Assembly: GCA_023262335.1 (NCBI GenBank)
Contig: JALRBE010000001.1
Span: forward strand, 1-53,137
Source: Candidatus Saccharimonadia bacterium
GTDB lineage: Bacteria; Patescibacteriota; Saccharimonadia; Saccharimonadales; Saccharimonadaceae
Direction of reading: 5' to 3'
DNA length: 53,137 nt
Shown piece by piece: positions 13,298 to 41,478 of this stretch; position 1 is the first letter of the stretch, and the number at the start of each line of letters is the position of its first letter. The translations under genes and the position numbers were made by a program. Below the pieces are notes generated by a model. That model saw nothing but the letters and a program-made list of their open reading frames with translations. It did no database searches and was not told the origin of the DNA.

Positions 13298-13313
13298 TAC
13301 GCTTAGTAATGCT

Positions 13314-14528
13314 ATGAAAACGCTTGACGCTTCTTTTTTTGCCGGTAACCGCCGCGCTGCCATGGATAAACTGCAGGGAGGTCTGTTGGTAATTGCCGGC
13401 TATACTGGCATGCAGAAGAGCAACGACGAGGAGTTCCGATTCACTCAGGAATCGAACATGTGGTATTTGACGGGGATCGAGTTCCCTGACTGGTGGCTGA
13501 TCATGGACGGAGGTTCCGGCAAGTCATGGCTGGTCGAGCCGACGATCGACGAGCGGCTACGATTGTTCACCGAAAGCCTTGCTGCCGAGGACGCCAAAGC
13601 GAAGAGCGGGGTCGACACGGTGCTCAGTCGGGATGCTGCCATGACGATGTTGCGCCGCCTGGCCAAAACCCACTCGCTCGTGCATACCGTCGGGCAATCG
13701 CCGTACAGCGAGCATTTCACGTTCGCGCTCAACCCGGCCATCGCCGACATGAAAACGACGCTCGAGCGGACCTTCGTGAAAGTAGAGGATTTTAGGCTCC
13801 CGTTGGCCCGCCTTCGGGCAATCAAGCAGCCCGTGGAAATCGACGCCATGCAAAAGGCGATCGACGTGACCATGGCAGGATTATCGCAGGTCAAAGAAAA
13901 CTTGCAGTCGTACCGTCATGAATACGACATTGATGCCGAGCTGGGGTACGCGTTCCGGAAGGCTGGCGGAACGCACGGGTTCGACCCTATCGTCGCGAGC
14001 GGCAAGAATGCTACCGTCGCGCATTATTTTCAGAACAACGCCGCGTTGAAAAAAGGGACGTTCGTCATGATGGACGTCGGCGCGAAACTGAACGGTTATC
14101 CTGCCGACCTGACGCGCACGTTCGCATATGGCAAGCCGACGAAGCGCATGGCAAGCGTGCACGAGGCCGTCCGTATCATGCAGGCCGAAATCATCGAACT
14201 CATAAAACCGGGCGTGTCGCTTGAGGAATACCAGCGCGAGTCTGACGCTATTATCAAGAGAGAAATGATCAAGCTTGGGGTCATGAACGGACCGGATGAC
14301 GAGCAAGCGTTCAGGCGTCATATGCCGCATGCGCTAAGCCATGGCCTCGGCATCGACGTGCACGACGCGCTCGGAAGGCCGCGCGAGTTCCAGCCCGGCA
14401 TGGTGCTAACGGTCGAGCCGGGCGTGTATTTGCAAGACGAAGGAATCGGCGTCCGCATAGAAGACGACATACTCGTGACGGAATCGGGCAAGAAAAACAT
14501 GAGCGCGAAGCTCTCGACAACCTTTTAG
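13314..14528 (+). CDS. Xaa-Pro aminopeptidase (M24B family)
   Basis: Creatinase-like N-terminal domain plus M24 metal ligands (MMDVGA..., HGLGIDVHD, LTVEPG, RIEDD). Start at MKTLDASFF; the track ORF upstream extension overlaps uvrC. Confidence 0.85.
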   Translation: MKTLDASFFAGNRRAAMDKLQGGLLVIAGYTGMQKSNDEEFRFTQESNMWYLTGIEFPDWWLIMDGGSGKSWLVEPTIDERLRLFTESLAAEDAKAKSGVDTVLSRDAAMTMLRRLAKTHSLVHTVGQSPYSEHFTFALNPAIADMKTTLERTFVKVEDFRLPLARLRAIKQPVEIDAMQKAIDVTMAGLSQVKENLQSYRHEYDIDAELGYAFRKAGGTHGFDPIVASGKNATVAHYFQNNAALKKGTFVMMDVGAKLNGYPADLTRTFAYGKPTKRMASVHEAVRIMQAEIIELIKPGVSLEEYQRESDAIIKREMIKLGVMNGPDDEQAFRRHMPHALSHGLGIDVHDALGRPREFQPGMVLTVEPGVYLQDEGIGVRIEDDILVTESGKKNMSAKLSTTF

Positions 14529-14552
14529 GCGGCAAGGTATACTGGTGCGTAC

Positions 14553-14945
14553 ATGATACGACGGCAATTTGGAATCTTTCTTGTTCGGTGGCTGCTCAAT
14601 TCGTTCGGGCTATGGGTTGCGGTTCGGTTGCTCGGTACGGGGTACAGCGAAGCGCAAGTCGAATCAGGCATCGCGCTCTTCTTGCTTGCAGGCCTCATCT
14701 TTTCGGTCATCAACAGCGTCATCAAGCCTATCGTGGTCATCTTCTCGCTGCCAGCCATTCTTATCACGCTCGGTTTGTTCATGCTCGTCGTGAACGGCCT
14801 CATGGTCTACTTGTCGGTCATACTGACTCCGGGACTCGAAATGTCGTTCTTTAACTCGATTCTTACCGGAATGATATTAAGTTTGATAAACTATATAGTA
14901 AGTAGCGTGTTCGAACTAAACGGACGCCAAAGGGAGAGAATATGA
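14553..14945 (+). CDS. phage-holin-family-IV-like membrane protein (four TM)
   Basis: 130 aa with four hydrophobic helices and a LNSFGLWVA...INSVIKPIVVIFSLP pattern typical of the Phage_holin_4_2 family. TATACT at 14538-14543 lies upstream. Confidence 0.65.
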   Translation: MIRRQFGIFLVRWLLNSFGLWVAVRLLGTGYSEAQVESGIALFLLAGLIFSVINSVIKPIVVIFSLPAILITLGLFMLVVNGLMVYLSVILTPGLEMSFFNSILTGMILSLINYIVSSVFELNGRQRERI

Positions 14946-15169
14946 CAGTTGATGGAATCTTACAATTCGTGACGATAGCGTCGGGAGTGCTCATGGTGGC
15001 AAGTATCCTGCTGCAGCAGCGGGGCGCGAGCCTTGGCGCTGGGTTCGGTAGCTCAGGCGAGCTGTACACGACTCGTCGCGGACTCGACAAGAACCTGTTC
15101 GAAGCGACGATCGTGCTTGCGGTCGTGTTCGTGCTGTCAATCCTCACGGGACTGCTTCTTCCTGCCTGA
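14942..15169 (+). CDS. secG: preprotein translocase subunit SecG
   Basis: 75 aa, two TM helices and the conserved LLQQ.GA.LGA.FG core. ATGA overlap with the upstream gene. Confidence 0.75.
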   Translation: MTVDGILQFVTIASGVLMVASILLQQRGASLGAGFGSSGELYTTRRGLDKNLFEATIVLAVVFVLSILTGLLLPA

Positions 15170-15181
15170 CTTCGGTAGCTG

Positions 15182-16969
15182 ATGACCATGGGTGACGACG
15201 ACAAAAGGGTGTGGAACCGGTTGGAGCTCAAACATCGCTCCAAAAAACTGAAAAAACACGCGCGCAAAGCCGAGAACGCGACGGTTCGTCATGCCAAGCG
15301 ATTCGTCGTTAACCGCTGGGAGAACATTCGGGAAGTACGCCTGCATATTATATTGTGGCTGAGCGGCGTCGGGTTGTTGATCGCGCTCGTTGGCCTGCAA
15401 ATGTTATGGTTCCAGCAAAGTTACGTAACCAAAGCCCCAACGAACGGTGGTACGTACGCCGAAGCCGTGAAGGGTCCGATTACCACGCTGAACCCTTTGT
15501 ATGCCACGACTCCGGCAGAGGTAGCGGCGGGGCGGTTGCTATTCTCGTCGCTTTACCAGCTGGACGCTTCGGGTAATGTCAAGGGAGACATCGCCACGAG
15601 CATGACGAACGAAGCGGACAAGACGTTTACCGTGTCGCTTCGCAAGGACGTCCGTTGGCACGACCGGTTGCCACTCAATGCCGACGACGTCATATTCACC
15701 GTGAATCTCATGAAGAACCCGGCGGCACGTTCGACGATGACGGCGAGCTGGCGGGGCATCGAGGCGCAAAAGGTCGACGAATATACGGTAAGGTTCCAGT
15801 TACCTGCGTCGTACGCGGCATTTCCGCACGCGCTGACGTTCGCGATACTTCCTCAACATCTTCTGAAGTCGGTGGAGCCGGCGAGCCTTCGGGAGAGCGG
15901 CTTTAGCGACGCGCCTATCGGCAGCGGACCCTTCTCGCTCCGTCTTCTGCAAAACATAGGCACGGGAACCGGTCGCAAGGTCGTTCACATGGTTTCGAAC
16001 AAGGATCACTACGCTGGTCAGCCACGCTTGGACAGGTTGCAGATTCACGCGTACGGCGACGACGATTCGTTTGCTCGCGCCCTGCGTACCGGCGAGGTCA
16101 GCGCGGCAAGCGACGTGTCGGGCGCCGTCGCGAGCTCGGTCGACAAAAGCAGGTACGACGTTATCATGAAGCCGATTAACAACGGGGTGTATGCCATTTT
16201 TAATACCACCCAGCCGTTGCTCGCTAACGCGCAGGTGCGCCGTGCACTGCAAGCAGGTACGAATACCCAGGCGATTCGTGACGATTTGTACGGCAAACCG
16301 CAAGCGATGCATCTTCCGTTCGCGGTTCGCCAGGTTGATGGCAGCGACGCCTTGGCTGCGCCAAAATACGACAAGGCCGCCGCAGCGAAGCTGCTCGCGG
16401 AGGCAGGCTGGACCATGAAGGACGGCATACTGAAAAAAGGCGAGGAAACATTGCAACTGCGCGTCGTTACCCGCAAGAACAGCGATTACGAGAAGGCGCT
16501 TGGAGCGCTTGCCGGCCAGTGGCGTCAGTTAGGGATCGACGTACTTGTCCAGGTGGTCGATACCACGAGTACCGGCCAGAACTTCACGCAGCAGATTTTG
16601 CAAGAGCGGAACTACGACGTGTTGCTTGACGAGCTCGTGATAGGCCCTGACCCGGACGTGTTCGCGTATTGGCACTCAAAGGGGTTGTTGAATTTCTCAA
16701 GCTATAGCAACCAAGTTAGCGACGATGCGCTATCCAGTGCCAGAACCCGATCGGACGAAGCGCTGCGTGCGGTAAAGTACGCTGCCTTCGCCAAGCAGTG
16801 GTTGGCGGACGCCCCGGCTATCGGCTTGTACCAGTCTGATTTCATCTATGTTCGGAACAAAGCTGCCCGGTCCGTGACTCCAGACGAAATAATCGTCGAT
16901 CCCAACGAGCATTACGCCACGGTTCGGTATTGGACTGCCGATCAAAGCGAAACGTTCAAAACGCCTTAG
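15182..16969 (+). CDS. ABC transporter substrate-binding protein, family 5 (peptide/nickel type), N-terminally membrane anchored
   Basis: 595 aa. A basic N-terminus and one TM helix (HIILWLSGVGLLIALVGL) are followed by an SBP_bac_5-like body. No permease or ATPase genes are adjacent. Confidence 0.8.
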   Translation: MTMGDDDKRVWNRLELKHRSKKLKKHARKAENATVRHAKRFVVNRWENIREVRLHIILWLSGVGLLIALVGLQMLWFQQSYVTKAPTNGGTYAEAVKGPITTLNPLYATTPAEVAAGRLLFSSLYQLDASGNVKGDIATSMTNEADKTFTVSLRKDVRWHDRLPLNADDVIFTVNLMKNPAARSTMTASWRGIEAQKVDEYTVRFQLPASYAAFPHALTFAILPQHLLKSVEPASLRESGFSDAPIGSGPFSLRLLQNIGTGTGRKVVHMVSNKDHYAGQPRLDRLQIHAYGDDDSFARALRTGEVSAASDVSGAVASSVDKSRYDVIMKPINNGVYAIFNTTQPLLANAQVRRALQAGTNTQAIRDDLYGKPQAMHLPFAVRQVDGSDALAAPKYDKAAAAKLLAEAGWTMKDGILKKGEETLQLRVVTRKNSDYEKALGALAGQWRQLGIDVLVQVVDTTSTGQNFTQQILQERNYDVLLDELVIGPDPDVFAYWHSKGLLNFSSYSNQVSDDALSSARTRSDEALRAVKYAAFAKQWLADAPAIGLYQSDFIYVRNKAARSVTPDEIIVDPNEHYATVRYWTADQSETFKTP

Positions 16970-18153
16970 GGCCGTTGTGCTGACCGGCGCAACGTAACCA
17001 AGATCGCGAGCCATAGGCCAAAACCGATGACAAGGACCGCGATGCCAAAAATGACGTACCCGACCTGATACCCGTATTGGCTGACGTACTGGGTAAGGAG
17101 CGTGATCGCGATGATATCGCCAAAGAGGGTGAACAGGTTGAGCGCCGACAGGAGCGTCGCTTTGTACGTATGCTTGATGTCGTTGAGCATTTTTGCCTGG
17201 AAAACGATCATCCTGACGCGCGTGTAGCCTGCGAAAAGCGTAAATGCGCCGATCGTCACGACAGGGTTGGTCGTCGCGCCGATCCCGACGAGACAAAGCA
17301 TGATGACGATGAGATCGAACAAGTAGAACGCGGCCGGTTTCAATCTGTCGAGCACGTGGACGTACCAGCCCATGACGGCACCGGCCAAGCTGGAGAGCGC
17401 TAAGATGAATCCGAACCAGGCGACAGCGATACTGATATCCTGAAAAACGAGTTCCCTGAATTCTCCGCCCTTGTTAGAAATGCCAGAGAGAAAACCGCAG
17501 AACACGAACAAAGCGGCGTTTTCGAGGGTGACGATGCTTTTGACCGCGTTCAGCGGGTTCTTTTTCTTTTTGTACGTCTCATCGCCTTTGGGGTATTCGA
17601 AGCTTATTGTCAGCCAAAGCATGGCTACGAGCGAGAAGAACCCGAGGATGAAGGGTAACGAGTGATGAATGGAGTAAGTGAGTGGCACCAAAGCGACCAA
17701 TAGCACGTTGCCAATAAGCCCGTAGGTTTGCGCCCGGCCCATGACCTTCGTATAGTCCTTTTCGCGCTTGAGCGCATGAAGGGTGTCATGCATGAAGGCC
17801 TCTATGGCACCCGCTTGGAACGCGTAGCCTCCGAAAAACAGCAGGGATGCCAAAAGCCCGCCCCAGAAGTTCGGCATGAACGCGTAGAACAGCGGTGAGG
17901 TCACGGCAATCGCGGCGCCGAGAATGATCGACTTGCGATTACCGATTTTGTCAGCTACGTAGCCCGACGGCAGTTGGAGCAGGCCCTGCGCGAGTGACGA
18001 AACGACCACGATGATCGCGAGTTCCTCGACCGTCACCTGGCCGACGTTCACGAGCTGTATGGTAATGAGCGGCAGGTAGACCCGCTTGGTGAATATCTTA
18101 TACCAAGAGTATTTTACGATGTTTTTTTCAAGCCTGCGTTCGTATGCGCTCAT
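16966..18153 (-). CDS. MFS transporter
   Basis: 395 aa, about 12 TM helices, MFS loop motif GYVADKIGNRKS. The ATG is 6 nt after TGcTAGAAT (18160-18165). Confidence 0.85.
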   Translation of the reverse strand: MSAYERRLEKNIVKYSWYKIFTKRVYLPLITIQLVNVGQVTVEELAIIVVVSSLAQGLLQLPSGYVADKIGNRKSIILGAAIAVTSPLFYAFMPNFWGGLLASLLFFGGYAFQAGAIEAFMHDTLHALKREKDYTKVMGRAQTYGLIGNVLLVALVPLTYSIHHSLPFILGFFSLVAMLWLTISFEYPKGDETYKKKKNPLNAVKSIVTLENAALFVFCGFLSGISNKGGEFRELVFQDISIAVAWFGFILALSSLAGAVMGWYVHVLDRLKPAAFYLFDLIVIMLCLVGIGATTNPVVTIGAFTLFAGYTRVRMIVFQAKMLNDIKHTYKATLLSALNLFTLFGDIIAITLLTQYVSQYGYQVGYVIFGIAVLVIGFGLWLAILVTLRRSAQRP

Positions 18154-18331
18154 GGAAAGATTCTAGCATAGGAGAGCGGTCTTTGTTTGCAATATGATGG
18201 CGGTACCATATAATGACTACATTACTTATGCTTAGTGGCCGCGTGGCGCGGTCGTGACGCATCATAAGTTGGACGTGATCCAGGGAAGAGCAGGCGCAGG
18301 CGTCGCCGAGAAACGGAACGAACAGCAATAC

Positions 18332-18886
18332 ATGAACAAGAATGAGCGCTCGTATCGTGGGTTTTTATCGTTCGTTGCCACAAAGAAGGTCGCGATTGTT
18401 TTTGGCGTCGCTGTCGTCGTGGTGGTGGCTGGCGTCGTGTTGCTAAGGGTGGTATTGGGTGGTTCCGGTGACTCCGGCGACGGCTCGGACAGGCAGGAAT
18501 ACGCCGTGCGAACGGCCGGCGACGCGATGCGCAGTGGAAACGAAGGGCAGGCCGGTGATATCTACGAAAAGGAAATCGATGCCGAGACCGATCCGACGAA
18601 AAAGGTGGAACTGGCAATAGACCACTCAAGCATGCTGTATGGGGCGGGCAAGCATGACCGTGCCCTGGACGTGGCGACCGAGGCCGAAGCGTACAGCGAA
18701 GACAAATATCTGATTGCCGACTGGCTCGGTCGTTTGTACGAGGCGCGCAAAATGTACGGCGAGGCACGGAAGTATTACGAACTCGCCTTGAAGCACGTGG
18801 AGAGCCCGACGAATAATAACGGGTACACAAAAAAACATTACGACAAAAAGATTGCCGCCATGACTGCGGCCGAGGCGGCAAAATGA
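18332..18886 (+). CDS. membrane-anchored TPR-like protein
   Basis: One TM helix (VAIVFGVAVVVVVAGVVLL) followed by TPR-like helical repeats (YGEARKYYELALKH). An alternative GTG start at 18254 overlaps the stop of a 9-codon uORF. TATAAT at 18209-18214 lies upstream. Confidence 0.6.
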   Translation: MNKNERSYRGFLSFVATKKVAIVFGVAVVVVVAGVVLLRVVLGGSGDSGDGSDRQEYAVRTAGDAMRSGNEGQAGDIYEKEIDAETDPTKKVELAIDHSSMLYGAGKHDRALDVATEAEAYSEDKYLIADWLGRLYEARKMYGEARKYYELALKHVESPTNNNGYTKKHYDKKIAAMTAAEAAK

Positions 18887-21195
18887 CAGGCGTCGTATCC
18901 GTACGGAGGATTTCGGTTGTGGGATTCGCTCTCGCAGTGACGGCACTTGTTATCGCCGCGTTCACGGCGCTTGGGTCTTCGACGCCGGCCGCTGCCGCGC
19001 CGTCACCATGTAAAGTCATCATCGCGCTTGATCGTTCGGGGTCTATCGGCTCGGCGCGCTGGAAGAGCATGGGTAACCAAGTGCTGCAATTATTTGGCGC
19101 CGGAGGTATCGACAGGGATGACATCGAAATCGCTTTTTGGACGTTCTCGCACACGTTCGATGCCGGGAACAAGAACTTCAATGCGCCGTACCATGGCTAC
19201 GTAAAGTCGAACGCCACGGTATTGGACTCGGGATATAACGCGTTCAAATCAAGTCTCGGTCTGGCTGACCCTGACGCGATACTGGGCGGCGAGACGAACT
19301 ACGCGCAGGGATTCGGCTACGATACACCTGAGCGCAACCCGTTGTCGTTGCCTAAGAACCAGAGCGCGAGCATCGCGACGATCGCGTCGCAGGCAAGCGT
19401 GATCACGTTTTTGACGGACGGCATCCCGAACTATCCCGGAGGAATGGACTTTGATGATGACGGATGGCAGGCCGGCTACGCGGCCCGGCAAAAATATGAT
19501 GCCAGCGTCGCGGTGATCGGCGGATACCTTAACTCCGACGAAAACTCGTCGTTCGTTCCGAGCTCGTTATACCAAGCCATCAACGGTCCAGGCGCACGGG
19601 CGCCTGCGGACAATATCGGGCCTTTGGATTTTGGCAGCCTGAACGACTTTCTTATGGTACGAATTCCCTTGGCTTGCGGCGCAAGCGTCAACGCGTACGA
19701 GCTGAGACCCGTGGTGACTTCGACGAGCCACGCCGTCATGAGCGGTAAAAAAGCCAGCTTCAACTACGTGGTCAATAATACGAGCGATAACCAGGGTTCG
19801 AGTGATTGGCGCGTTTTTGACGTCACTATCGCTCCAGGAGCGGGCGCGGCAGGTGATCCGTTCGCTTGTGGGGGAACTGGCTATTGCGGCGGAATAAACG
19901 ACTGCGTTGGCATACGGACGCTCATCGGAGGACCAGGAGCGGGAACCTGCAAAGCTGCCGACGACGACGGTGACGGCGTTCCGGATGGTAACGGCACGGG
20001 AGACCGTGATTTTCCGATCGATGTGACCCGCCTTTACGGAGGGATCGCGCGCGATGCCAATAATGATACGGCAGCGATGGCGCTTGGCACGAGGGTTTGC
20101 CGGGTGTTGGTATTGGAGCGAGCAACGTCGGTCGGAGGCAGCAGGCTCCACGGGGCGTGTACGGTCATCGGCAAGACGCCGCTCGTACAAATCCACGGAG
20201 GCGACGTGCGTGTCGGCAGGCTATTCAAGGGAGATAGCGCCGCGACCACGCTTGCAGGAGTGTTCACGACGAACTTCAGTCTTTCGGGCGCTGCGGCACC
20301 GAACGGCGTCACGTTCGGTAGCTGGACCGAATATGGTGTCTTGGCTCCGGGGACGATACTGAGCATGGCATCGCTGTCGGGGTACGCGGACGGGTATATT
20401 CGCCAGCCGTCCGTTCCGCCTGGCTGCGCGCCCGGCGCAGATAAAGGCAGCAACCGCTTGACGTTCGCGAACAGCGGCGCGTCCGGTTGCGGAGGTATGC
20501 AGGGGGCACCGGGGATGGTGCCGGACATCGTTTCGGCGGCGCGATCATGGCGAGTGGTCAATAACCTCGTAAGCGGTACTGTCCAATTGAGTGGCGGGCC
20601 GGGATTGTACCAGAACGAAGAAGGTACGTCCGATGTCCGACTGGGCGCCACCACTATCGATACTGTCAACTCGACCGACAACACCTATGTGGTGTACGTA
20701 CCGAACGCGACGCTGACCATTGAAGGCGATATCCGCGTACGGGATTACGCGAGCCGGACTTACGCGAACGAAAAAGAGGTCCCTCAGTTGATCGTCATCG
20801 CGAAGAATATCAATGTCGCCGAAGGAGTGCGGTATGTCGATGCCTGGCTTGTCGCGAGCGGCTCGGGTAACGACGGCGTCGTTAATACGTGCACGGGTTA
20901 CGGAGGAAGCTTCTCGCCGACCGTATGTGACGACGATTTGTACGTGAACGGCCCTGTTTTCGCGCGCCAATTGCACCTATGGCGAACGACGGTCTACGCG
21001 GGTCAGTGCACCATCGATAATCCCGGAGCGCTGTCGGATCCGGCGCTCAGTGTGCCGAGCGGGTGCGTACGCGATATCGACGATCCTGCCGAAACGGTCA
21101 ACTTGCCGGCAAGCACGCTGCTGTGGGCACTGAGCAGGGGTGCTCACGGGAACCTGCGGACGACGCAGTCAGTCGAACTGCCGCCACTCTATTAA
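18883..21195 (+). CDS. membrane-anchored or secreted vWA-domain protein, 770 aa (candidate pilus-associated adhesin)
   Basis: N-terminal hydrophobic anchor. The vWA domain has a complete MIDAS (IIALDRSGSI ... GGETNY ... FLTDGIP). There is an Ig-like middle part, an Asp-rich loop DDDGDGVPDGNGTGD and many Cys. ATGA overlap with the TPR gene. Confidence 0.8.
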   Translation: MTGVVSVRRISVVGFALAVTALVIAAFTALGSSTPAAAAPSPCKVIIALDRSGSIGSARWKSMGNQVLQLFGAGGIDRDDIEIAFWTFSHTFDAGNKNFNAPYHGYVKSNATVLDSGYNAFKSSLGLADPDAILGGETNYAQGFGYDTPERNPLSLPKNQSASIATIASQASVITFLTDGIPNYPGGMDFDDDGWQAGYAARQKYDASVAVIGGYLNSDENSSFVPSSLYQAINGPGARAPADNIGPLDFGSLNDFLMVRIPLACGASVNAYELRPVVTSTSHAVMSGKKASFNYVVNNTSDNQGSSDWRVFDVTIAPGAGAAGDPFACGGTGYCGGINDCVGIRTLIGGPGAGTCKAADDDGDGVPDGNGTGDRDFPIDVTRLYGGIARDANNDTAAMALGTRVCRVLVLERATSVGGSRLHGACTVIGKTPLVQIHGGDVRVGRLFKGDSAATTLAGVFTTNFSLSGAAAPNGVTFGSWTEYGVLAPGTILSMASLSGYADGYIRQPSVPPGCAPGADKGSNRLTFANSGASGCGGMQGAPGMVPDIVSAARSWRVVNNLVSGTVQLSGGPGLYQNEEGTSDVRLGATTIDTVNSTDNTYVVYVPNATLTIEGDIRVRDYASRTYANEKEVPQLIVIAKNINVAEGVRYVDAWLVASGSGNDGVVNTCTGYGGSFSPTVCDDDLYVNGPVFARQLHLWRTTVYAGQCTIDNPGALSDPALSVPSGCVRDIDDPAETVNLPASTLLWALSRGAHGNLRTTQSVELPPLY

Positions 21196-21245
21196 ATTGC
21201 GGCATCTATCAGCTGCGGTCCGTCTCGTGTTCTTGGGAACGCTTA

Positions 21246-21254
21246 TGCTATAAT
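21246..21254 (+). promoter_or_regulatory. extended -10 promoter TGcTATAAT of the pilin-like operon
   Basis: TG at 21246-21247 and TATAAT at 21249-21254. The ATG at 21263 follows after 8 nt, giving a leaderless or near-leaderless transcript. Confidence 0.5.
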
Positions 21255-21262
21255 GGCGCCAA

Positions 21263-21997
21263 ATGGGTAGAGAGCGAGGATTCACGATTATCGAAGTAGT
21301 GCTCTTTTTGGCTATTGCCGGCTCGCTGTTCGCGTTGCTCATGGTGGGTATTAGTACGGGCATCGCGCAGCAGCGGTACTCCGAAAGTGTCCGTAGCTAC
21401 AAGGCGCTCCTGCAGGACCAATACCTGGCGGCGGTGAACATTCGCAACCAAAAGACGGATACGGACAAATGCGACCCATTGACTGGCAGAACCGACGGCA
21501 CGGCTCGGAATGACTGGGGCGCGTCCGCATGCGTCATTTTAGGCAGGGTGATTCAAGTGGTGCCGGGCAGGAACGGCGAAACGGTCGAGGTGTCAAGTGT
21601 CGTAGGAATCGATCCAGGCAGTCAATCGGCAAGCGGCGGGGATTTGGCTGCGCTCCGGGCGTACAAGCCGGTCATGGCGACGTTCGACAAACAATCCATC
21701 GATCTTGATTGGGGAGCTCGGCTGACGACCGCTTCCGGAGCGTCCTCGCAAGCGGCAACGACGACGGTGCTTATTCTCCGTTCGCCCGTCAGCGGTCTCA
21801 TGCGCGTTTTCACCGAAGCGTCCAAACCGGCTGACCTTCTAGATATGATTACCGACACGAGCGCTTCACGGAAGCTGAGCAATTGTATCGTCGGGGACAC
21901 GTCGCTGCCGAAGCAAATGGTCACGATCGATCCGTCGATCGCGAGCGTCGACGGGATTACCGTAGACGGCGGGACGAACGCGGATTGCCAGGCATGA
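21263..21997 (+). CDS. prepilin-type N-terminal cleavage/methylation domain protein (minor-pilin-like 1)
   Basis: MGRERG/FTIIEVVLFLAIAGSLFALL is a class III signal with Gly-1, Phe+1 and Glu+5 followed by a hydrophobic helix. Confidence 0.8.
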   Translation: MGRERGFTIIEVVLFLAIAGSLFALLMVGISTGIAQQRYSESVRSYKALLQDQYLAAVNIRNQKTDTDKCDPLTGRTDGTARNDWGASACVILGRVIQVVPGRNGETVEVSSVVGIDPGSQSASGGDLAALRAYKPVMATFDKQSIDLDWGARLTTASGASSQAATTTVLILRSPVSGLMRVFTEASKPADLLDMITDTSASRKLSNCIVGDTSLPKQMVTIDPSIASVDGITVDGGTNADCQA

Positions 21998-22662
21998 ATC
22001 AGCGCGGCGACACCATAATCGAAGTCATACTCGCCGTCATGGTATTCAGTATCATCGCTGTCGGGGGCATGACGTTGATGAACCAAGGTATCGCTATCGT
22101 CCAGCGGTCACTCGAAATCAGCCAGGTGCGTAATCAAATGGACGCGCAGGCGGACGCGCTGCGCTACATGCATGCGCTTTACGTGACAGACCCAAGCTCT
22201 GCCAGTGCTTCTGCTGCTGCGTGGAAGACGATGACGAGCACGTATTCGGTCGCGAGCGCCCAGCCGTTCGACGAGACTTCTGACACGACGGGCTGCCGCT
22301 TGCCCGTGTCCGGAAAGCCGTTCGCGATCAATACCGTGACGCCCGGTAGTATGGACGACGGCGACCCGATATTGCCGTTCGACCTTGCCAGTGACGACGC
22401 GGGCGTACCGGTGAGCCGGCATAACCCGGTCATGGCAGGCACGGTCGACGCGTTGCTTTCGACCACGTACGCGCAGGTCCGTAGCGTGGAAGGGCAGGTG
22501 GTATCCCAGGGCATATGGGTCGAGGCTGTCCGCTCGGCAAGCATGTCAGCGACAACTCCCGGGTATTATGATTTTCATATACGTGGCTGCTGGTACAGTC
22601 CTGGCCAGGATCTGCCCGTGACACTTGGAACGATCGTGAGGCTGTATGAACCGGTATCGTAA
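21994..22662 (+). CDS. pilin-like protein with atypical N-terminus (PilV-like position)
   Basis: MNQRG/DTIIEVILAVMVFSIIAVGG has the same register with Glu+5, but Asp replaces Phe at +1. ATGA overlap with the upstream gene. Confidence 0.7.
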   Translation: MNQRGDTIIEVILAVMVFSIIAVGGMTLMNQGIAIVQRSLEISQVRNQMDAQADALRYMHALYVTDPSSASASAAAWKTMTSTYSVASAQPFDETSDTTGCRLPVSGKPFAINTVTPGSMDDGDPILPFDLASDDAGVPVSRHNPVMAGTVDALLSTTYAQVRSVEGQVVSQGIWVEAVRSASMSATTPGYYDFHIRGCWYSPGQDLPVTLGTIVRLYEPVS

Positions 22663-23356
22663 GGACAGTCGCGGGTTTACGATCGTCGAGCTCTCGATAG
22701 CAATGACGCTGTTGTCGGTGTTGCTCATCGTGATCGTCTTCCTGGTTATCAGGATCGGGGGTATTTATACGAAGGGAGTTACCATGAAGTCGGTCAACCA
22801 AGCAGGGCAGGTTATCGTGTCCGACATGCGAATGACTATCGGCGACGCTGGCGCGTTTCCTCTCGCCGCCTCGTTCATCGAACAGAAGGATGCCAACGGA
22901 CGAGTCGCGGGCGGCCGATTATGTACCGGCGAATACAGTTATGTGTGGAACATAGGGACGACGGTCGAAACGGACGCCTCCGGCGGGGTGCAGCAAGAGA
23001 ATAATTATGATGGTGACGGAGCGCCTATCAGGTTCGTCCGCTCCCTTGATAACGACAGTACGTACTGCACGGTATCAGCAAGCGGGGAGATGCCGGCAGT
23101 GATCAAAGGCAACTCCACTGAATTGCTATCGGAGTCGGACTTGGCGATCCAGGACTTCGCGATGACTCAGCTGACGACAAACATGGCAAGCGGAGCGTCC
23201 GTGTACAAGATCACAATGCTGATCAGCAACGCCGACACGGAATCGATCGAATCGGCGAGCAACACCTGTCGTCCTCCGAGCGTTTCGGATGACCGGTTCT
23301 GCGCGGTCAACGAATTCGGGTTCACGGTTCACGCCAGCGGAAAGAGAGGGGGCTAG
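22646..23356 (+). CDS. prepilin-type N-terminal cleavage/methylation domain protein (PilW-like position)
   Basis: MNRYRKDSRG/FTIVELSIAMTLLSVLLIVIV. It overlaps the upstream gene by 17 nt. Confidence 0.8.
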   Translation: MNRYRKDSRGFTIVELSIAMTLLSVLLIVIVFLVIRIGGIYTKGVTMKSVNQAGQVIVSDMRMTIGDAGAFPLAASFIEQKDANGRVAGGRLCTGEYSYVWNIGTTVETDASGGVQQENNYDGDGAPIRFVRSLDNDSTYCTVSASGEMPAVIKGNSTELLSESDLAIQDFAMTQLTTNMASGASVYKITMLISNADTESIESASNTCRPPSVSDDRFCAVNEFGFTVHASGKRGG

Positions 23357-23360
23357 GCGC

Positions 23361-24527
23361 ATGCGACAATCCAATCAGAGAGGGGCGGCATCCATCTTTA
23401 TTGTTATCTTCACGATGTTGCTCATCATTACGGTCGGCACGGCATTCATTCGGAACATGCTGCAAGGTCAGAGTCAGGCGGCGTCGGACGACCTGTCAAG
23501 AAGCGCGCTTGATTCGGCGTACGCTGGGGTCGAAGACGCCAAGCGTGTTCTGGCGGAATACTACGGGCAAAAGTGCGACACGCAAGCAGGTGCGGCGTCG
23601 GTGCGCTGCACGATGCTGATCGGCGTTCTCAAGGGCGCCGTCGACGCTGCGGGCTGGACGAACGACTGCACGCTCATACCAAAAACCGTTTTGCAACAAA
23701 CCGGCACGGCCGACGGCATAGCGGTACGGGCTGCCGACGGGTCCGGTGCCGATCTCGACCAAGCGTACACCTGCTTGAAAATCCAGATGGAGACGATGGA
23801 ATACAGAGGGACGTTAACGACCGACAATTCGAGCATTGTCAAGCTGCAATCAAGGGCGGGCGACCCAAAGATGGTGCGCTTCGAGTGGCATATGATCCGT
23901 TCCGGACAGACGCTCAACGTCGACGACGGTACCGTCCAGCCGTACAGGTTGCCGCAAAAATGGCCTGATCACCGACCTGCTGTCGTCAAAGCGCAGCTGC
24001 TGCAATTCAAGGGAGGGTTCACGCTTGCTGAATTCGACGCCGACTCGACACGTAACGCATCGCTGTTCCTGCTACCTGCGGCAACGGGCGTCAATCCGCT
24101 GAGCTTGTCGATGGATACAAGGCGCTCAGGCGTGTCCGGCGCAGCGCAGAACGTCCGATGCGTGCAAGCGGCGGTCGACTACGCATGCTCCGTCGATATC
24201 GCGCTTCCTGACATAGGCGACCCTAGCCAGGCACGGACGGCGTATTTGAAGCTCAATCAATTCTATGTCGCCGGCGCGACCAACTTCCGCGTGATGATGC
24301 TTGATGCGGCCGGCAGGACGATGCCGTTCACCGATGTCCAATCGACCGGCAGGGCGAACGAGCTGTTCCGTCGCGTCAGGAGCTACGTCGACGTCGGTGT
24401 TAGCAGCGTACCGAGTCCCGAATCGGCCGTCGACGTGACAAAGAGCCTGTGCAAAGAGTTCACTGTCACCGACACGCAGGCAATCTTGCCGAATCCGAGC
24501 GATGGCTGCCCCGCGCTTCCGCAGTGA
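23361..24527 (+). CDS. PilX-N-terminal-like pilus assembly protein
   Basis: The N-terminus MRQSNQRGAASIFIVIFTMLLIITVG resembles the PilX_N motif (RGxA then a hydrophobic helix, no Glu5). A GAGAGGGGG Shine-Dalgarno lies upstream. The track ORF 5' extension overlaps the previous gene. Confidence 0.65.
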   Translation: MRQSNQRGAASIFIVIFTMLLIITVGTAFIRNMLQGQSQAASDDLSRSALDSAYAGVEDAKRVLAEYYGQKCDTQAGAASVRCTMLIGVLKGAVDAAGWTNDCTLIPKTVLQQTGTADGIAVRAADGSGADLDQAYTCLKIQMETMEYRGTLTTDNSSIVKLQSRAGDPKMVRFEWHMIRSGQTLNVDDGTVQPYRLPQKWPDHRPAVVKAQLLQFKGGFTLAEFDADSTRNASLFLLPAATGVNPLSLSMDTRRSGVSGAAQNVRCVQAAVDYACSVDIALPDIGDPSQARTAYLKLNQFYVAGATNFRVMMLDAAGRTMPFTDVQSTGRANELFRRVRSYVDVGVSSVPSPESAVDVTKSLCKEFTVTDTQAILPNPSDGCPALPQ

Positions 24528-24552
24528 ACCGCGAACGGCGAAGCAAGGACGC

Positions 24553-24581
24553 TTGTATTGCCGTAGCGCTTAAGCTATAAT
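24553..24581 (+). promoter_or_regulatory. promoter TTGTAT-17 nt-TATAAT ahead of the RCC1 gene
   Basis: TTGTAT at 24553-24558, a 17-nt spacer, and TATAAT at 24576-24581. The -10 and downstream sequence (GCTATAATcGCGCCA) nearly repeat the pilin operon promoter. Confidence 0.55.
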
Positions 24582-24620
24582 CGCGCCATAATCGTTTGGC
24601 AGTAAGGTGCGTCAGCAAGA

Positions 24621-26345
24621 TTGGGGGATTGCGTGGTTTCCGGAACAAAAGGGGTAACAATTAAGGCCGTTTTGGGCGTAGCGCTGGCCGTGCTTGGCGT
24701 GGTCGCTGTGCAAGTAGGGCTTTCCACGAAGGTCTCGGCCGTCGATATTCGTGATCTTTCAACCGGCTCCGCGCACGCGTGCGCCGTGGTGGAATACGCC
24801 GCGAAATGCTGGGGCAACAACGCGTCCGGGCAGCTAGGAAACGGCTCGAGCAGTACTTCGACGCAGCCTGTAAGCGTGTATACGCGCTCCTCGTATGACG
24901 AATCGGTGAAAGATTACTGCCGCAACGGAGTTGATATCGGTGGGAACTGCATCGGTTTCGGTGCTCAGTGGGTGTATAAAACGGTCAATCGACCGGCCAG
25001 CCCGTTGCATAACAAAACGGTAACCAAAATCTCTGCGGGCCTTTATCATACCTGTGCCGTCGCGAACGCGCGGGCGTTCTGTTGGGGTAACGGCGGTAAC
25101 GGCCGGCTCGGTATCGGGTCGTCCGAAGACCAGTCGCGGCCGGTCGCTGTCGCCATAAGCGGCGCGCTTCGCGACAAGGAAGTGGTCGACATTGCGGCGG
25201 GAAGCAACTTCACGTGCGCGCTCGCGACCGATGGGACGGTTGCCTGCTGGGGCGATAACGCGGACGGCCAGCTTGGCACGGGAAACCGGACGGCAAGCAA
25301 CGTGCCAGTAGCGGTGAGCATGGCGGGTGGCAGCGCCCTGCAGAACGACAAAGCCAAGAAGCTGTCCGTCGTGAGCAGTTTTGACGATCCGACGACAAGG
25401 ACGATGTGCGTTGTTACGCGGAGCGATCAGGCGGTATGTTGGGGACATGGCATAGATGACGGCAGGCCGATTCCTCCTGCGAGCAGCGAGACGGTCGCTT
25501 GTAACAAAGATTCTCGGACCTCACGACCGGCGAACGAAAACCTGGACAGGATCATCTTCAGCTCGACGTTGCCGAGGCTTATACCTGGGGCCAAAATAGC
25601 AAGCATGAACGGGGAGCGATACGTTACCGGTCTTGGCACAGATGGAAAAGCGTATTATTGGGGGCAATATGGCTACAGCGTCGATGCGACCTATGACAAC
25701 ATAGTAACGTGCAAAGTGAACCCATGTACAGGCAAGGTAGTCATTCAGCGCGATGACAAAGCGAAGATACTGCTGGCAGCGAACGGTAAGCCGCCGACGG
25801 GAAGCGGGGGATTGAACAAGAAGAAGTCGAGCACCGGGCAAGGCTTTAACGGCAAGCCGGGCATGGCTACCTATACGCGGTACGACGGCAACGACAATAA
25901 CAATTCCAACGGCGCCTGCAGCATGACGCGGACACATTACGGTTATAAGAAGAACATTACCAACACGCCGATCGGAGAGAAGAAGACGACGACACCTTCG
26001 CTCTGGCCGCAGTCACAGGCCGGCATCACGGCATTCTCGGGCAACTCACACGACCGGCTCTTTTGCGCGGTGATCGGTGGCACCGCTCAGTGTGACGCTC
26101 ATGGCGGCGATACTCGCTCGGGGCAGCTTGGGAACGGCAAGACGTCGCAACTGACCGGGCCGCAAGCGGTCGTTACGAGCGGGTGGCTAGCTGGCAAGCA
26201 AATTTCTCGACTGAGCACTGGCAGTACCGGGTATACCTGCGCGGTAGCCGGTGGTGGCATAGGGTGTTGGGGTATAAATAAAAAAGGTCAGCTAGGCATT
26301 GGCAGCACCGATGCGAAAAGCGTGCCAACGGCAGTGAGGTTGTAA
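24621..26345 (+). CDS. signal-anchored RCC1-repeat (7-bladed beta-propeller) protein
   Basis: Repeats CWGNNASGQLGNG, CWGNGGNGRLGIG, CWGDNADGQLGTG, CWGHGIDDG, YYWGQYGY, GDTRSGQLGNG and CWGINKKGQLGIG. N-terminal hydrophobic segment AVLGVALAVLGVVAV. Start is TTG 24621 or GTG 24633. Confidence 0.85.
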   Translation: MGDCVVSGTKGVTIKAVLGVALAVLGVVAVQVGLSTKVSAVDIRDLSTGSAHACAVVEYAAKCWGNNASGQLGNGSSSTSTQPVSVYTRSSYDESVKDYCRNGVDIGGNCIGFGAQWVYKTVNRPASPLHNKTVTKISAGLYHTCAVANARAFCWGNGGNGRLGIGSSEDQSRPVAVAISGALRDKEVVDIAAGSNFTCALATDGTVACWGDNADGQLGTGNRTASNVPVAVSMAGGSALQNDKAKKLSVVSSFDDPTTRTMCVVTRSDQAVCWGHGIDDGRPIPPASSETVACNKDSRTSRPANENLDRIIFSSTLPRLIPGAKIASMNGERYVTGLGTDGKAYYWGQYGYSVDATYDNIVTCKVNPCTGKVVIQRDDKAKILLAANGKPPTGSGGLNKKKSSTGQGFNGKPGMATYTRYDGNDNNNSNGACSMTRTHYGYKKNITNTPIGEKKTTTPSLWPQSQAGITAFSGNSHDRLFCAVIGGTAQCDAHGGDTRSGQLGNGKTSQLTGPQAVVTSGWLAGKQISRLSTGSTGYTCAVAGGGIGCWGINKKGQLGIGSTDAKSVPTAVRL

Positions 26346-26346
26346 C

Positions 26347-27456
26347 GTGATGAAGGATAACCATACCGACGACGAGAACAAGGTGTCGCTTTCTGCGACG
26401 GATAACACGGCAGATACCGAGCGGTCAGCTGCTTTCGCAGACAAGACGGAGAGTGCTGATGGTAGTGGCGCTGCTGCGATAGGCGACATGCCGGTGCCAC
26501 GCAAGCCGCAAAATCCAAAAAGAACAGGCATGATGATCATCGCGCTAGGGCTCTTCGTTATCATTGTCATCGCTATCGGCATTGTCATCGCGGTCTTCAT
26601 GTCAAAAGCAGAAAAGCACGCAAACGGCGATACCAGTCCGTTTGCCGAAACGACACGCTTCGCATCGCCTAAAGAACTGACGGCTGCCGTGGAGCCTGAT
26701 CTGCGCGGGGCGGTCGTCGCCGTTCAGGCGGCTACGGGAGTGAGTGCGGTCGATGGTGACGGTATCTACGCGTACGGCGCCCCCGCATATAAAGAGGGCG
26801 ACATGAAGTTCAACGTTCTGCCGCTTGCGATAACCGGGTCTGCGTACAAAAGCGATTTGGCTACCGCAAAAGCGAACTATGCTGCCCTCGAAAAGTTTTT
26901 CGAAACGAACAAATTCAAAAAGAAGTTTTCATCGACGAATGCTCCTGGTGCCGCATCGGATGTCGAGCAGGCCGTTAATTACGTTGCCTACGCGGAATAC
27001 GAGTCAAGCAATATTCTTTGCTCGATCCGTCATGCGGATGCCACGACGACGAAAGCGGCATCCCATATAGCGAGTATCGGTTGCGCGGACAAAGAAAGCT
27101 ACGGTCAGGCAGCGAAGGTGTTGCAGCCGTTCTACGCGGCGTATGTCGGTGCTGGCAGCGACGTATCAAAGAACCTGGTTTTCGGCTTCTTGAGGGAGAC
27201 GAGCGGGTCGGACGGTTATAAGCACACGGAGATTTATCAGGAAGATGACAATCAGTATGCAGAGGGCCAAGACGTCAAGCCGTTCACCGGCCTCTATTAT
27301 CAGCGGTCGGGCGACAAGGCGTGGACGTACTTCAGTATTACGCCAGTCGATACGACGCTGTACTGCGAGGCGTATACTACACCGGCCTTGAAGAGCGCCT
27401 TCAAGGGGTATGAGTGTTTCGATAACCCGTCTCAGCAGGATTCTGTCGTTAAGTAG
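26347..27456 (+). CDS. membrane-anchored hypothetical protein (acidic N-terminal tail, one TM, about 280-aa outside domain)
   Basis: TM helix MMIIALGLFVIIVIAIGIVIAVF. A GAGG Shine-Dalgarno lies upstream, with GTG 26347 / ATG 26350 directly after the RCC1 stop. No family recognised. Confidence 0.7.
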   Translation: MMKDNHTDDENKVSLSATDNTADTERSAAFADKTESADGSGAAAIGDMPVPRKPQNPKRTGMMIIALGLFVIIVIAIGIVIAVFMSKAEKHANGDTSPFAETTRFASPKELTAAVEPDLRGAVVAVQAATGVSAVDGDGIYAYGAPAYKEGDMKFNVLPLAITGSAYKSDLATAKANYAALEKFFETNKFKKKFSSTNAPGAASDVEQAVNYVAYAEYESSNILCSIRHADATTTKAASHIASIGCADKESYGQAAKVLQPFYAAYVGAGSDVSKNLVFGFLRETSGSDGYKHTEIYQEDDNQYAEGQDVKPFTGLYYQRSGDKAWTYFSITPVDTTLYCEAYTTPALKSAFKGYECFDNPSQQDSVVK

Positions 27457-30718: not shown

Positions 30719-32326
30719 ATGGTGGCAAAAAAAATTCCTAAGATTCGGCTGAAGGTCCCTCGTGAGGAGCAGTTGAAGTCGGCGCTCGTGATAACCGCGG
30801 GCGCGCTGATGCTTACGAAATCCAGTCCCGACGACGCTCTCGGAGAGCTTTTCTCCGCGGTGCAGCTTCACCAGGTGTACGACGACGGCAAAACGTTCAT
30901 CGACCTTATCCCACGTGGTCGGATCAAGCAAATAAAAAAGGAATATGAGCTGGAGCGTGCCGATCCTCACTTTGATCTGCACGAGTTCGTGAACCGGCAT
31001 TTTTACGCGTTCGAACATTCGTCGCCGCTCTATCATTCGGACGCTTCCAAGACTCCGCGTGAACATATTACCGAGCTATGGAAAGTACTCGAACGTCGCA
31101 ACCGTCGTGACCGCGGATCGTTGATCGCCATTCCGTACCCGTACGTAGTTCCTGGCGGCAGGTTCTCGGAGCAATTCTACTGGGACAGCTATTTCATCAT
31201 GCTCGGCTTGGAGGTTGACGGCCGCTGGGACATGATCGACAACATGATGAAGAATTACGCGTACATGCTGCGCAAGTTCCAGTTCATTCCCACGGCGAAC
31301 CGCACGTACTTCTTGTCGCGCAGCCAGCCGCCGTTCTTCAGCCATATGGTCAAGCTGCTCGCGAGGCATAAGAACTCCAGGTTGACCATGCTCGAGTATT
31401 TGCCGTATTTGCTGACGGAATACCGGTTTTGGGTGAAGGGGCGCCGACGGCTCAGCGGAGAAGACGACGTGGCCGCGCTGCGACGGCTCGTGCGGTTACC
31501 GGACGGTGCTATCATGGGCCGTTATTTCGACGACAAGTCGACGCCGCGGCCTGAATCGCTACGCGAAGACGTCGAAACGGTCGAACGCTCGAATCATACC
31601 GATAACGAAAAGATGTATCTTGACCTTCGCGCGGGCGCCGAAAGCGGATGGGACTTCAGTAGCCGCTGGTTCAGGGATCCGCAGGACATCAGTACGATCC
31701 ACACGACCGACATGGTGGCGATCGATCTCAACTGCTTGCTGTATCACCTGGAGTCGACGATCGCCGAAACCTACGAGTCGATGTATCAGCCGCTGCTGGC
31801 GCGCAAGTTCCGCAAGTACGCCGAAAAGCGCAAGGCCGCGATAAACAAGTACCTTTGGGATGAGAACGAAGAGTTCTTCATGGATTACGACTTTCGCGAA
31901 GGCAAAACGACCGGCCGCGTGACGCTTGCGGGCGTGTTCCCGTTGTTTACGAAAATCGCGACCGAGGCACAAGCCAAAGTCGTGGCGCAGCGGCTTGAAA
32001 GCGATTTTTTGAAGAAGGGCGGCCTGACGACGACGCTCATAGAAAACGGCCAGCAATGGGACGCGCCGAACGGTTGGGCGCCGCTGCAGTGGGTGGCCAT
32101 CCAGGGTCTGCGCAATTATGGGTACCATGGCCTGGCGGACCGCATAAAGGATGCATGGGTCACGACCAATCTTGCCGTTTACGAACGCGAAGCGAAAATG
32201 GTCGAAAAGTACAATGTGGCGCAGCCAAACAAGCTCGGCGGCGGCGGCGAGTACGTCCTGCAAGACGGTTTTGGGTGGACTAACGGCGTGCTGGCCACGC
32301 TGCTGAGCGAAGACGAAAAGAATTAG
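30719..32326 (+). CDS. alpha,alpha-trehalase (GH37)
   Basis: Both GH37 signatures are present: PGGRFSEQFYWDSYF and QWDAPNGWAPLQW. 535 aa. Confidence 0.9.
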   Translation: MVAKKIPKIRLKVPREEQLKSALVITAGALMLTKSSPDDALGELFSAVQLHQVYDDGKTFIDLIPRGRIKQIKKEYELERADPHFDLHEFVNRHFYAFEHSSPLYHSDASKTPREHITELWKVLERRNRRDRGSLIAIPYPYVVPGGRFSEQFYWDSYFIMLGLEVDGRWDMIDNMMKNYAYMLRKFQFIPTANRTYFLSRSQPPFFSHMVKLLARHKNSRLTMLEYLPYLLTEYRFWVKGRRRLSGEDDVAALRRLVRLPDGAIMGRYFDDKSTPRPESLREDVETVERSNHTDNEKMYLDLRAGAESGWDFSSRWFRDPQDISTIHTTDMVAIDLNCLLYHLESTIAETYESMYQPLLARKFRKYAEKRKAAINKYLWDENEEFFMDYDFREGKTTGRVTLAGVFPLFTKIATEAQAKVVAQRLESDFLKKGGLTTTLIENGQQWDAPNGWAPLQWVAIQGLRNYGYHGLADRIKDAWVTTNLAVYEREAKMVEKYNVAQPNKLGGGGEYVLQDGFGWTNGVLATLLSEDEKN

Positions 32327-33876: not shown

Positions 33877-33980
33877 ACTACTTATTGTAAACGTCCTGAC
33901 ATATCATTCAAGACGGGATATAATCATAGTATATATGCTGCGTTATCATGCGATGGCTTTGACGAAGGAGATCCGAGAAC

Positions 33981-41070: not shown

Positions 41071-41478
41071 ATGATTCAAATCAATTACCTCGCTATTGCC
41101 GTTGGGGCGGTAATCGCGGTGCTCTTTAGCGCGCTTTATTATTTTTTGCTGAACAAACAGGTGATTGCGCTCCGAGCTACGAAACTAAGCAAAAAAGAAG
41201 ACGTCCGCACCGTCGCGACCCCGAACAAGATCATCATCGAACTGGTCCGCACGTTCGTGCTTGGATTGGTGCTGGCGTATGCCGTGCGACTGCTTGGCGT
41301 CGCGACGTTCGACCAAGTCGTCGTGGTCGCGTTTTGGCTGTGGCTTGGGTTTCCGGTCGTTCTGTTCGTCGGTCAGGTCATTAACGAGCATTTCCCCGGC
41401 AGGCTGGCAGCGATTCACGCGGGAGACTGGTTGGTAAAGCTGCTCATTCTCGTGACCATACTGGCATACTGGCGCTAG
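41071..41478 (+). CDS. DUF1761-like membrane protein
   Basis: 135 aa, four hydrophobic helices and an MIQINYLAIAVGAV N-terminus typical of DUF1761. A GGAGGG Shine-Dalgarno lies upstream. Confidence 0.65.
   Translation: MIQINYLAIAVGAVIAVLFSALYYFLLNKQVIALRATKLSKKEDVRTVATPNKIIIELVRTFVLGLVLAYAVRLLGVATFDQVVVVAFWLWLGFPVVLFVGQVINEHFPGRLAAIHAGDWLVKLLILVTILAYWR

Follow-up and report, generated by a model that had tools for sequence, protein, structure and literature searches.

What are four minor pilin genes doing in a stretch of DNA that encodes no machinery to assemble a pilus? The question is raised by a locus of a Candidatus Saccharimonadia bacterium (NCBI GenBank assembly GCA_023262335.1, contig JALRBE010000001.1), studied here within a 53,137-nucleotide (nt) stretch of that contig (positions 1 to 53,137, forward strand), hereafter designated the window. 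Between positions 18254 and 27456 the window carries eight co-directional open reading frames (ORFs) of the + strand, named g1 to g8 in gene order. A preliminary description of the DNA, made from the letters alone, viewed them as a minor pilin locus in which the tip adhesin PilY1 might be split, with its von Willebrand factor A (vWA) domain and its beta-propeller encoded by separate genes on either side of the pilins. The genes and their spacing were described accurately, with overlaps of 4 nt (g3/g4) and 17 nt (g4/g5) and a 4-nt gap between g5 and g6, and the N-termini quoted for g3 to g6 agree with the translations; the idea of a divided PilY1 fared poorly when the locus was compared with those of relatives. 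The block is best read, with a probability of roughly 0.7, as the accessory part of a type IVa pilus cluster that is conserved in Saccharibacteria (T4P-1), composed of a pair formed by a TPR-like protein and the vWA protein (g1-g2) and of the four core minor pilins (g3-g6), from which the core genes are absent. Downstream of g6, the place of xerC is taken by an RCC1 gene together with g8. The locus is, in other words, a rearranged variant of a known pilus system. Its genes, with protein lengths in amino acids (aa), are the following:

18254..18886, + strand: g1, small bitopic membrane protein with an extracytoplasmic TPR-like domain (sub-threshold TPR matches)
18883..21195, + strand: g2, Sec-secreted protein of 770 aa with a vWA head and a C-terminal domain of its own
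20065..21195, + strand: conserved, family-defining C-terminal domain of g2
21263..21997, + strand: g3, minor pilin in the GspH/FimU position, immediately behind pilD in canonical loci
21994..22662, + strand: g4, minor pilin, N-terminus MNQRG/DTIIEV
22646..23356, + strand: g5, minor pilin, N-terminus MNRYRKDSRG/FTIVEL
23361..24527, + strand: g6, Cys-rich pilin-like protein of 388 aa without E5 (G8/AASIF), in the PilX1/GspK position
24621..26345, + strand: g7, RCC1 beta-propeller, probably secreted by means of a cleavable Sec signal; outside the canonical pilus cluster
26347..27456, + strand: g8, protein of 369 aa with an N-terminal membrane anchor and no assigned fold; neighbour of the RCC1 gene

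Gene order in relatives and the four minor pilins

The comparison covered two sets of loci, namely 80 loci of species-representative genomes anchored on g2 and 80 metagenome loci anchored on g6. Homologues of these two genes belong almost exclusively to Saccharibacteria (TM7) and to Patescibacteria metagenome-assembled genomes. The loci that carry the nearest relatives of g2 (43% and 39% identity to the window copy) and of g6 (55% and 50%) all have the canonical order g1-g2-pilM-pilN-pilO-(72-aa ORF)-pilB-pilT-pilC-pilA-pilD-g3-g4-g5-g6, after which come the convergent xerC, bacA and ndk. The homologues of g2 and g3 are thereby separated by about 8.4 kb, and Pfam searches on this insert identified PilM, two ORFs of PilN/O size, PilB (T2SSE with MshEN), PilT, PilC (T2SSF), a 160-aa pilin and a prepilin peptidase. 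In the canonical loci whose gene tables were read, the pilO-pilB interval also contains a conserved 72-75-aa ORF without a Pfam match (L084:14826-15053, L087:1885-2103 and equivalents).

This order is kept with great regularity. In 52 of the 80 species-representative loci pilM comes directly after g2, at a median distance of 45 nt, which agrees with the initial suspicion that the vWA protein was linked to pili. Likewise, pilD stands ahead of g3 within complete pilus clusters in all informative metagenome loci (52/52), and dozens of genome loci agree; the gene after g6 is xerC in 71 of 71 relatives. Direct succession of g2 and g3 was seen in none of the 80 g2-anchored loci. In the window, nine core genes are absent between g2 and g3 (pilM, pilN, pilO, the 72-aa ORF, pilB, pilT, pilC, pilA and pilD), and among more than 100 loci this is the sole case in which the core is missing and an RCC1 gene comes after g6. 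The observation, made already from the sequence, that assembly machinery, prepilin peptidase and major pilin are lacking was confirmed, since a Pfam and ORF survey found no pilus machinery genes in the 53-kb window and tblastn with the PilM to PilD proteins of a relative retrieved no remnants, only the helix that pilins share. Given the fixed order in over 100 related loci, g3-g6 most likely represent the minor pilins of the pilus cluster known as T4P locus one, and the absence of the core is a peculiarity of the gene order of this genome, not of the pilus system.

T4P locus one of N. lyticus TM7x (TM7x_00415-00475) comprises pilM1N1O1, pilB1, pilT, pilC1, pilD and five predicted pilins (PilA1, PilV1, PilW1, PilZ1 and PilX1), the largest of which, PilX1, has no PilD-type signal (Grossman et al., PMC11623550). 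In S. epibionticum the corresponding region (SEML1_0104-0116) consists of 13 genes, mostly essential (Wang et al., PMC10633639), and type IV pili have been reported as near-universal in the phylum (PMC11623550, PMC10633639). In the relatives of the window, the stretch from pilM to g6 comprises 13 genes and matches the TM7x and S. epibionticum loci in gene number and listed components, so that g3-g6 would be the counterparts of PilV1, PilW1, PilZ1 and PilX1, an equivalence based on gene count and position and not on direct sequence comparison. As in the TM7x locus, g6 is the largest of the set and has no PilD-type signal. The window differs from a contiguous 13-gene locus in that it holds only the last four positions, the first nine genes (machine, major pilin and peptidase) being absent from its locus. 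Another difference is the g1-g2 pair, which lies upstream of pilM and outside the published description, and which is found elsewhere in Nanosynbacter-type genomes.

The sequences of g3-g6 also support their identification as the putative minor pilin set of a type IV pilus, which had been proposed from the start. The type IV prepilin signature (basic leader, Gly, hydrophobic helix and Glu at +5) is present in the class III N-termini of g3 (MGRERG/FTIIEV), g4 and g5, and the Gly at -1 and the Glu at +5 are kept in every orthologue of these three genes, with the consensus G/FT[IV]IE for g3, G/DT[IL][IV]E for g4 and G/FT[IL][IV]E for g5. The Asp at +1 of g4, which is uncommon as the first residue of a mature pilin, is invariant in all of the ~33 orthologues seen (e.g., L017:21256-21891). 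With the Pfam family N_methyl (PF07963, cutoff 21.2 bits), g5 scored 27.5 bits and passed, and g3 and g4 scored 16.4 bits, under the cutoff. The NCBIfam model TIGR02532 (cutoff 16.3 bits) recognized g5 (20.6 bits) and narrowly missed g4 (15.7 bits). Weak, sub-threshold matches linked g3 to GspH/XpsI and g4 to GspJ.

The fourth protein, g6, presents a Gly and a hydrophobic helix in its N-terminus (MRQSNQRGAASIFIVIF), with Phe instead of Glu at +5. The N-terminus had been read correctly and likened to PilX_N; the Pfam and NCBIfam searches, however, gave no match to PilX_N, nor to N_methyl or TIGR02532. The g6 family (157 homologues, several of them called "Tfp pilus assembly protein PilX" by the Joint Genome Institute) has 43 invariant columns and several conserved cysteines, all of which are found in the window copy. 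The possibility that the locus carries a fast-evolving paralogous second copy of the minor pilins is unsupported, as the divergence of g6 equals that among orthologues (median identity to canonical orthologues 40.5%, against 41.5% for the orthologues among themselves).

The core sets GspH-I-J-K and FimU-PilVWX prime assembly and cap the tip, GspK being the largest member (for a review see PMC7248040). The window resembles them in having four consecutive pilin-like genes, the last of which encodes the largest product and the one devoid of E5. GspK also lacks Glu5, and by analogy g6, sharing the PilX1/GspK position, is the presumed tip cap. The likeness has its limits, because the similarity of g3-g6 is confined to the N-terminal helix, there is no adjacent PilE-type fifth pilin, g4 has its Asp at +1, and the Saccharibacterial host lineage has no outer-membrane secretin.

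The g1-g2 pair

The genes g1 and g2 are coupled through an ATGA overlap that is also kept in relatives. Homologues of g1 align only from about residue 27-46, and therefore its actual start is probably the ATG at 18332. BLAST-detectable homologues of g1 lie directly upstream of those of g2 in 18 of the 80 loci.

The product of g2 begins with a signal peptide (~aa 1-39) whose AxA/AQ site is placed just ahead of a conserved Cys. A vWA domain follows (aa 43-265) with an intact DxSxS...T...D metal ion-dependent adhesion site (MIDAS), formed by D50, S52, S54, T138 and D179; S52, T138 and D179 are kept in at least 90% of the g2 family. The VWA profile gave 18.6 bits for g2, under the cutoff of 23.8. 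The same profile matched 12 of 22 g2-family members (best 1.1e-6), and the fold was modelled with confidence by AlphaFold2, with a predicted local distance difference test (pLDDT) score of 80-92 over aa 43-265. Foldseek matches included the vWF A3 domain, integrin I domains and TRAP/MIC2, with the sortase-pilus tip adhesin SpaC as top match. The TM-score against SpaC is low (0.21), only the vWA part and a beta-sandwich region (aa 273-430 of g2) being shared.

The remainder of g2 is a C-terminal domain of 375 aa (aa 395-770) ending in ELPPLY, with 35 invariant residues and the motifs QIHGGDVRVG, YGSWxEYG, IPQLVIIAKNINI, VDAWLVA, LxINGPVxA, PAExxNL and ELPP. It is the only part of g2 common to all 228 family relatives of the species-representative genomes, which are spread across Saccharibacteria and Patescibacteria; the N-terminal half is highly variable, and the vWA head was found in just 16 of the 80 g2-family loci. 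The window copy retains every residue that is invariant in its family. At its very end, the family shows an invariant ELPP[YLR][YF]. Searches with g2 in Pfam, NCBIfam and PDB sequences detected the vWA domain only, with no match for the C-terminal domain. When modelled alone, this domain was predicted with low confidence (pLDDT 58), and none of its six Foldseek matches had E<7. In both the full-length and the domain-only models the most conserved segments, aa 430-545 and 705-770, had pLDDT below 50, and the QIHGGDVRVG/YGSWxEYG region left unmodelled by AlphaFold2 may correspond to a new fold or to an interaction-dependent stretch.

Two further features of the family deserve mention. Tandem copies of g2, in several cases together with g1, occur in 8 of the 80 species-representative loci (upstream of pilM in L011, L019, L031, L032, L044, L079 and L081), as might be expected of a surface protein undergoing diversification. 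In addition, L053 (7893-11119) and ~20 similar oral Nanosynbacter-type loci encode a 927-aa g2 homologue coupled to an upstream ORF of 147 aa; these genes stand behind a histidine kinase gene, with those for pyruvate kinase and TIM a few genes downstream and no pilus genes nearby.

The resemblance between g2 and the PilY1/PilC proteins of Pseudomonas, Neisseria and Myxococcus is partial. Like these, g2 is large, is not a pilin and carries a Sec signal, a vWA-type head that varies among relatives and a conserved C-terminal domain, and its gene lies in a pilus cluster. No PilY1-type C-terminal beta-propeller was detected in it, however, and no match to Neisseria_PilC/PilY1 (PF05567) was obtained in 22 family members at E<=0.1. 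PilY1 was also missing from the Foldseek matches of g2, considering the top 50 listed for the full-length model and all six for the low-confidence C-terminal model. Moreover, g2 is located upstream of pilM and not between pilX and pilE, and its partner is a TPR membrane protein. MIDAS vWA domains are used as pilus-borne adhesins in monoderm-type envelopes by the modular pilin PilB of S. sanguinis, which bears a vWA module, and by the sortase-pilus proteins SpaC and RrgA (PMC8179133); g2 differs from them in having neither a pilin module nor a sortase motif.

The combination of variable head, conserved tail, Sec export and linkage to the pilus cluster is what would be expected of a PilY1-like accessory adhesin. 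It can be proposed, quite tentatively, that the g2 family together with g1 constitutes the PilY1-analogous non-pilin adhesin of the Saccharibacterial T4P-1, in which the tail would dock on g3-g6 and the head would set host specificity, with g1-g2/g3-g6 forming a "tip-complex operon". A literature search for vWA proteins tied to Saccharibacterial pili gave nothing specific, and the g1-g2 pair upstream of pilM, being absent from the published locus descriptions consulted, is possibly an undescribed accessory family.

A serious rival to an adhesive function, given the fixed position of the pair ahead of pilMNO and its TPR partner, is that g1-g2 forms a structural envelope component of a monoderm-like pilus machine, for example an alignment factor or a conduit through the cell wall or S-layer, with g1 as a TPR assembly factor, in a manner similar to the TPR pilotin and secretin that accompany pilMNO in diderms. 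The short and constant distance to pilM mentioned above, the translational coupling of the TPR protein to g2 and the strong conservation of the C-terminal domain, with its invariant residues, would all suit a machine part. Nevertheless, a variable N-terminal half and tandem duplicates are typical of adhesins, not of machine parts, and the intact MIDAS suggests ligand binding. Furthermore, g2 has no membrane anchor or channel-like repeat architecture, and Nanosynbacter-type genomes hold it apart from pilus genes. Taken together, these data make the structural role rather unlikely.

The RCC1 propeller and the rearranged junction

The g7 product scored 103.9 bits with RCC1 (cutoff 21.7) and 63.9 bits with RCC1_2 in Pfam, and seven blade motifs of the [CY]WG/GQLG type can be read in its sequence, a count from which g7 is predicted to be a seven-bladed RCC1 beta-propeller. 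A low-complexity insertion rich in Gly, Asn and Lys (aa ~380-470) separates the fifth and sixth blade motifs. Orthologues share 40-69% identity across the full length, and g7 and 20 of them display an n-h-c Sec signal ending in AxA, with blade 1 within ~10 residues and no pilin helix. The protein is therefore probably secreted; the seven blades of the preliminary description stand, whereas the signal anchor that it had assigned to g7 gives way to a cleavable signal. In overall terms, of the families anticipated in the block, RCC1 and, for g5, N_methyl were recovered, the N_methyl scores of g3 and g4 and the VWA score of g2 stayed below their cutoffs, and PilX_N and PilY1 were not detected.

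An RCC1 propeller has already been described on a pilus of this phylum. The PilX2 protein of TM7x (thin T4P-2 pili) is pilin-like, carries a heptabladed RCC1 propeller and is needed for efficient host binding, the authors comparing it with PilY1; lollipop AlphaFold2 models were also given for the TM7x pilins (PMC11623550). The earlier statement that no pilus tip complex of comparable composition had been described is consequently outdated. Like PilX2, g7 comes from a Saccharibacterium, has seven RCC1 blade motifs and adjoins pilin genes. The two proteins differ in that g7 and its orthologues have the cleavable Sec signal, accompany g8 and for the most part do not lie with pilin genes. The possibility that g7 is itself a modular pilin of the PilX2 type was rejected on account of its Sec-type signal without a pilin-like helix.

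The association of the RCC1 gene with its g8 neighbour recurs in all the genomic contexts examined. In L090, the gene after the RCC1 orthologue encodes a protein 36% identical to g8 over its full length, and members of the g8 family were also found beside RCC1 in L092 (after it) and in L005 and L007 (divergent from RCC1 and upstream of g1). The genome P0178 has an RCC1 orthologue and an adjacent unnamed ORF of 351 aa between rpoC and rpsL; a complete pilus cluster is found on the same 772-kb contig, and no RCC1 gene neighbours it. The contexts in which RCC1 and g8 occur (between rpoC and rpsL, after FtsEX-CHAP genes or upstream of g1) are mostly away from pilus genes. Possibly, the membrane-anchored g8 retains the secreted propeller. 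Judging from these contexts, the pair can be treated as a separate two-gene surface module, unrelated to the canonical pilus cluster.

These observations bear directly on the divided PilY1, according to which g2 (vWA) and g7 (RCC1) would be the two halves of a tip adhesin seated on the g3-g6 complex. The proposal draws on the Sec signal, the vWA head and the pilus-cluster location that g2 shares with PilY1, as well as on TM7x PilX2, which shows that an RCC1 propeller can act as a pilus adhesin in the phylum. Furthermore, the RCC1/g8 pair borders the pilus cluster in two independent ways (after g6 in the window, ahead of g1 in L005 and L007), a recurrence that hints at a functional link but does not establish one. 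On the other hand, g2 possesses its own conserved C-terminal domain, its vWA head is optional in the family, and neither the profile nor the listed structural matches relate it to PilY1. The RCC1 orthologues pass from a plain Sec signal to blade 1 with no pilin helix and lie elsewhere distant from pilus genes, and the invariable neighbour of g6 in the relatives is xerC, not RCC1. Synteny thus upheld the association of g1-g2 and g3-g6 with the pilus cluster and denied it to RCC1/g8, and a PilY1 split between g2 and g7 is improbable.

With regard to the junction left by the missing core, the genes xerC, bacA and ndk, which lie downstream in canonical loci, were sought in the window by tblastn without success, so that a local reshuffling of the 53 kb does not account for the rearrangement. 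An ENA contig of 16.9 kb from an independent assembly (L001) matches window positions 12646-24102 at 100% identity, with the g2-g3 junction included, and two further contigs from other samples are exact matches to g3-g6. Composition is uniform over the junction. Promoter-like motifs are present at three points of the block:

18187..18214, + strand: promoter-like TTGCAA-16-TATAAT before g1 (10/12 matches, best of the region; consensus match only)
21246..21254, + strand: extended -10 motif TGCTATAAT, inside the 67-nt g2-g3 junction
24553..24581, + strand: promoter-like TTGTAT-17-TATAAT before g7 (under the -35 threshold of the scan)

The last two had been reported before and are indeed present, the one before g1 being stronger. 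The -10 hexamer of TGCTATAAT ends 8 nt 5' of the g3 ATG, and no fitting Shine-Dalgarno sequence is found there, so that a transcript of g3-g6 would be leaderless, or nearly so, if this promoter is used.

The clean absence of the core genes and the uniqueness of the arrangement among the loci compared would also be expected if the block were a non-functional leftover, in which the core of the pilus cluster was deleted and the flanking accessory genes have not yet decayed. Several data argue against such a remnant: the six pilus-linked ORFs are intact, the residues invariant in the g2 and g6 families and the class III motifs are retained, g6 shows no extra divergence, and promoter-like sites are present. 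In addition, type IV pili are reported as near-universal in the phylum, and their genes as mostly essential in S. epibionticum. A remnant of this kind is accordingly unlikely. An assembly artefact at the g2-g3 junction (chimeric join or collapsed contig), which the uniqueness of the arrangement might suggest, is highly improbable in view of the independent contig that spans it at full identity, the two identical g3-g6 contigs from other samples and the uniform composition.

Elsewhere in the window, the larger ORFs encode transporters and functions in repair, translation, sugar metabolism and the cell wall. The sugar-metabolism group at 30719-35180, downstream of TypA and two Nudix-like ORFs, includes an opposite-strand MGH1-like/GDE_C glycoside hydrolase, a GT4 glycosyltransferase and a 535-aa ORF that is a putative trehalase, as read from the sequence. 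On the - strand, a 345-aa ORF at 41475-42512 with no Pfam match at E<=0.001 adjoins an OmdA-domain protein and a 743-aa double ABC-ATPase.

A predicted tip complex and its significance

In the favoured reading of the block as the accessory part of T4P-1, the pilus machinery would be encoded elsewhere in the genome. The prepilins g3-g5 would be processed by a PilD encoded there, and would then form with g6 a priming complex on the PilC platform, which would finally sit at the pilus tip. The g2 protein would be exported by Sec, and its C-terminal domain would dock either to the minor pilin complex or to the membrane-anchored g1. There, the head of g2, which is exchangeable and in this case consists of a MIDAS vWA domain, would be presented to adhere to the host bacterium in a metal-dependent manner.

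Some points weigh against this reading. Prepilin peptidase, ATPase, platform protein and major pilin are all absent from the 53-kb window, and a functional pilus in this organism is consequently assumed. About 25 of the 80 loci, mostly of the oral Nanosynbacter type, have no pilus genes after the g2 homologue, meaning that the function of g2 may be independent of pili. As the model of the g2 C-terminal domain is of low confidence and matches no fold, its docking role is conjectural, and the pilin identity of g3-g6 comes from sequence and synteny. Conversely, the breaking of an otherwise rigid 15-gene cluster in such a way that the presumed tip and accessory genes are kept together without the motor argues that the six genes form a functional unit.

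In Saccharibacteria and other episymbionts of the Candidate Phyla Radiation, type IV pili have been reported as central to finding and holding the host bacteria, and they were essential in the single transposon sequencing study available. Seen in this context, the minor pilin set g3-g6 is ordinary, since it belongs to a known system, and the publication of TM7x PilX2 means that a Saccharibacterial pilus with an RCC1 propeller is already known. What is new here is modest, consisting of a uniquely rearranged cluster and of a phylum-wide TPR/g2 pair next to pilM that lies outside the published locus descriptions consulted. This pair, with a conserved C-terminal domain without fold matches and with swappable heads, provides a concrete candidate for a determinant of host specificity.

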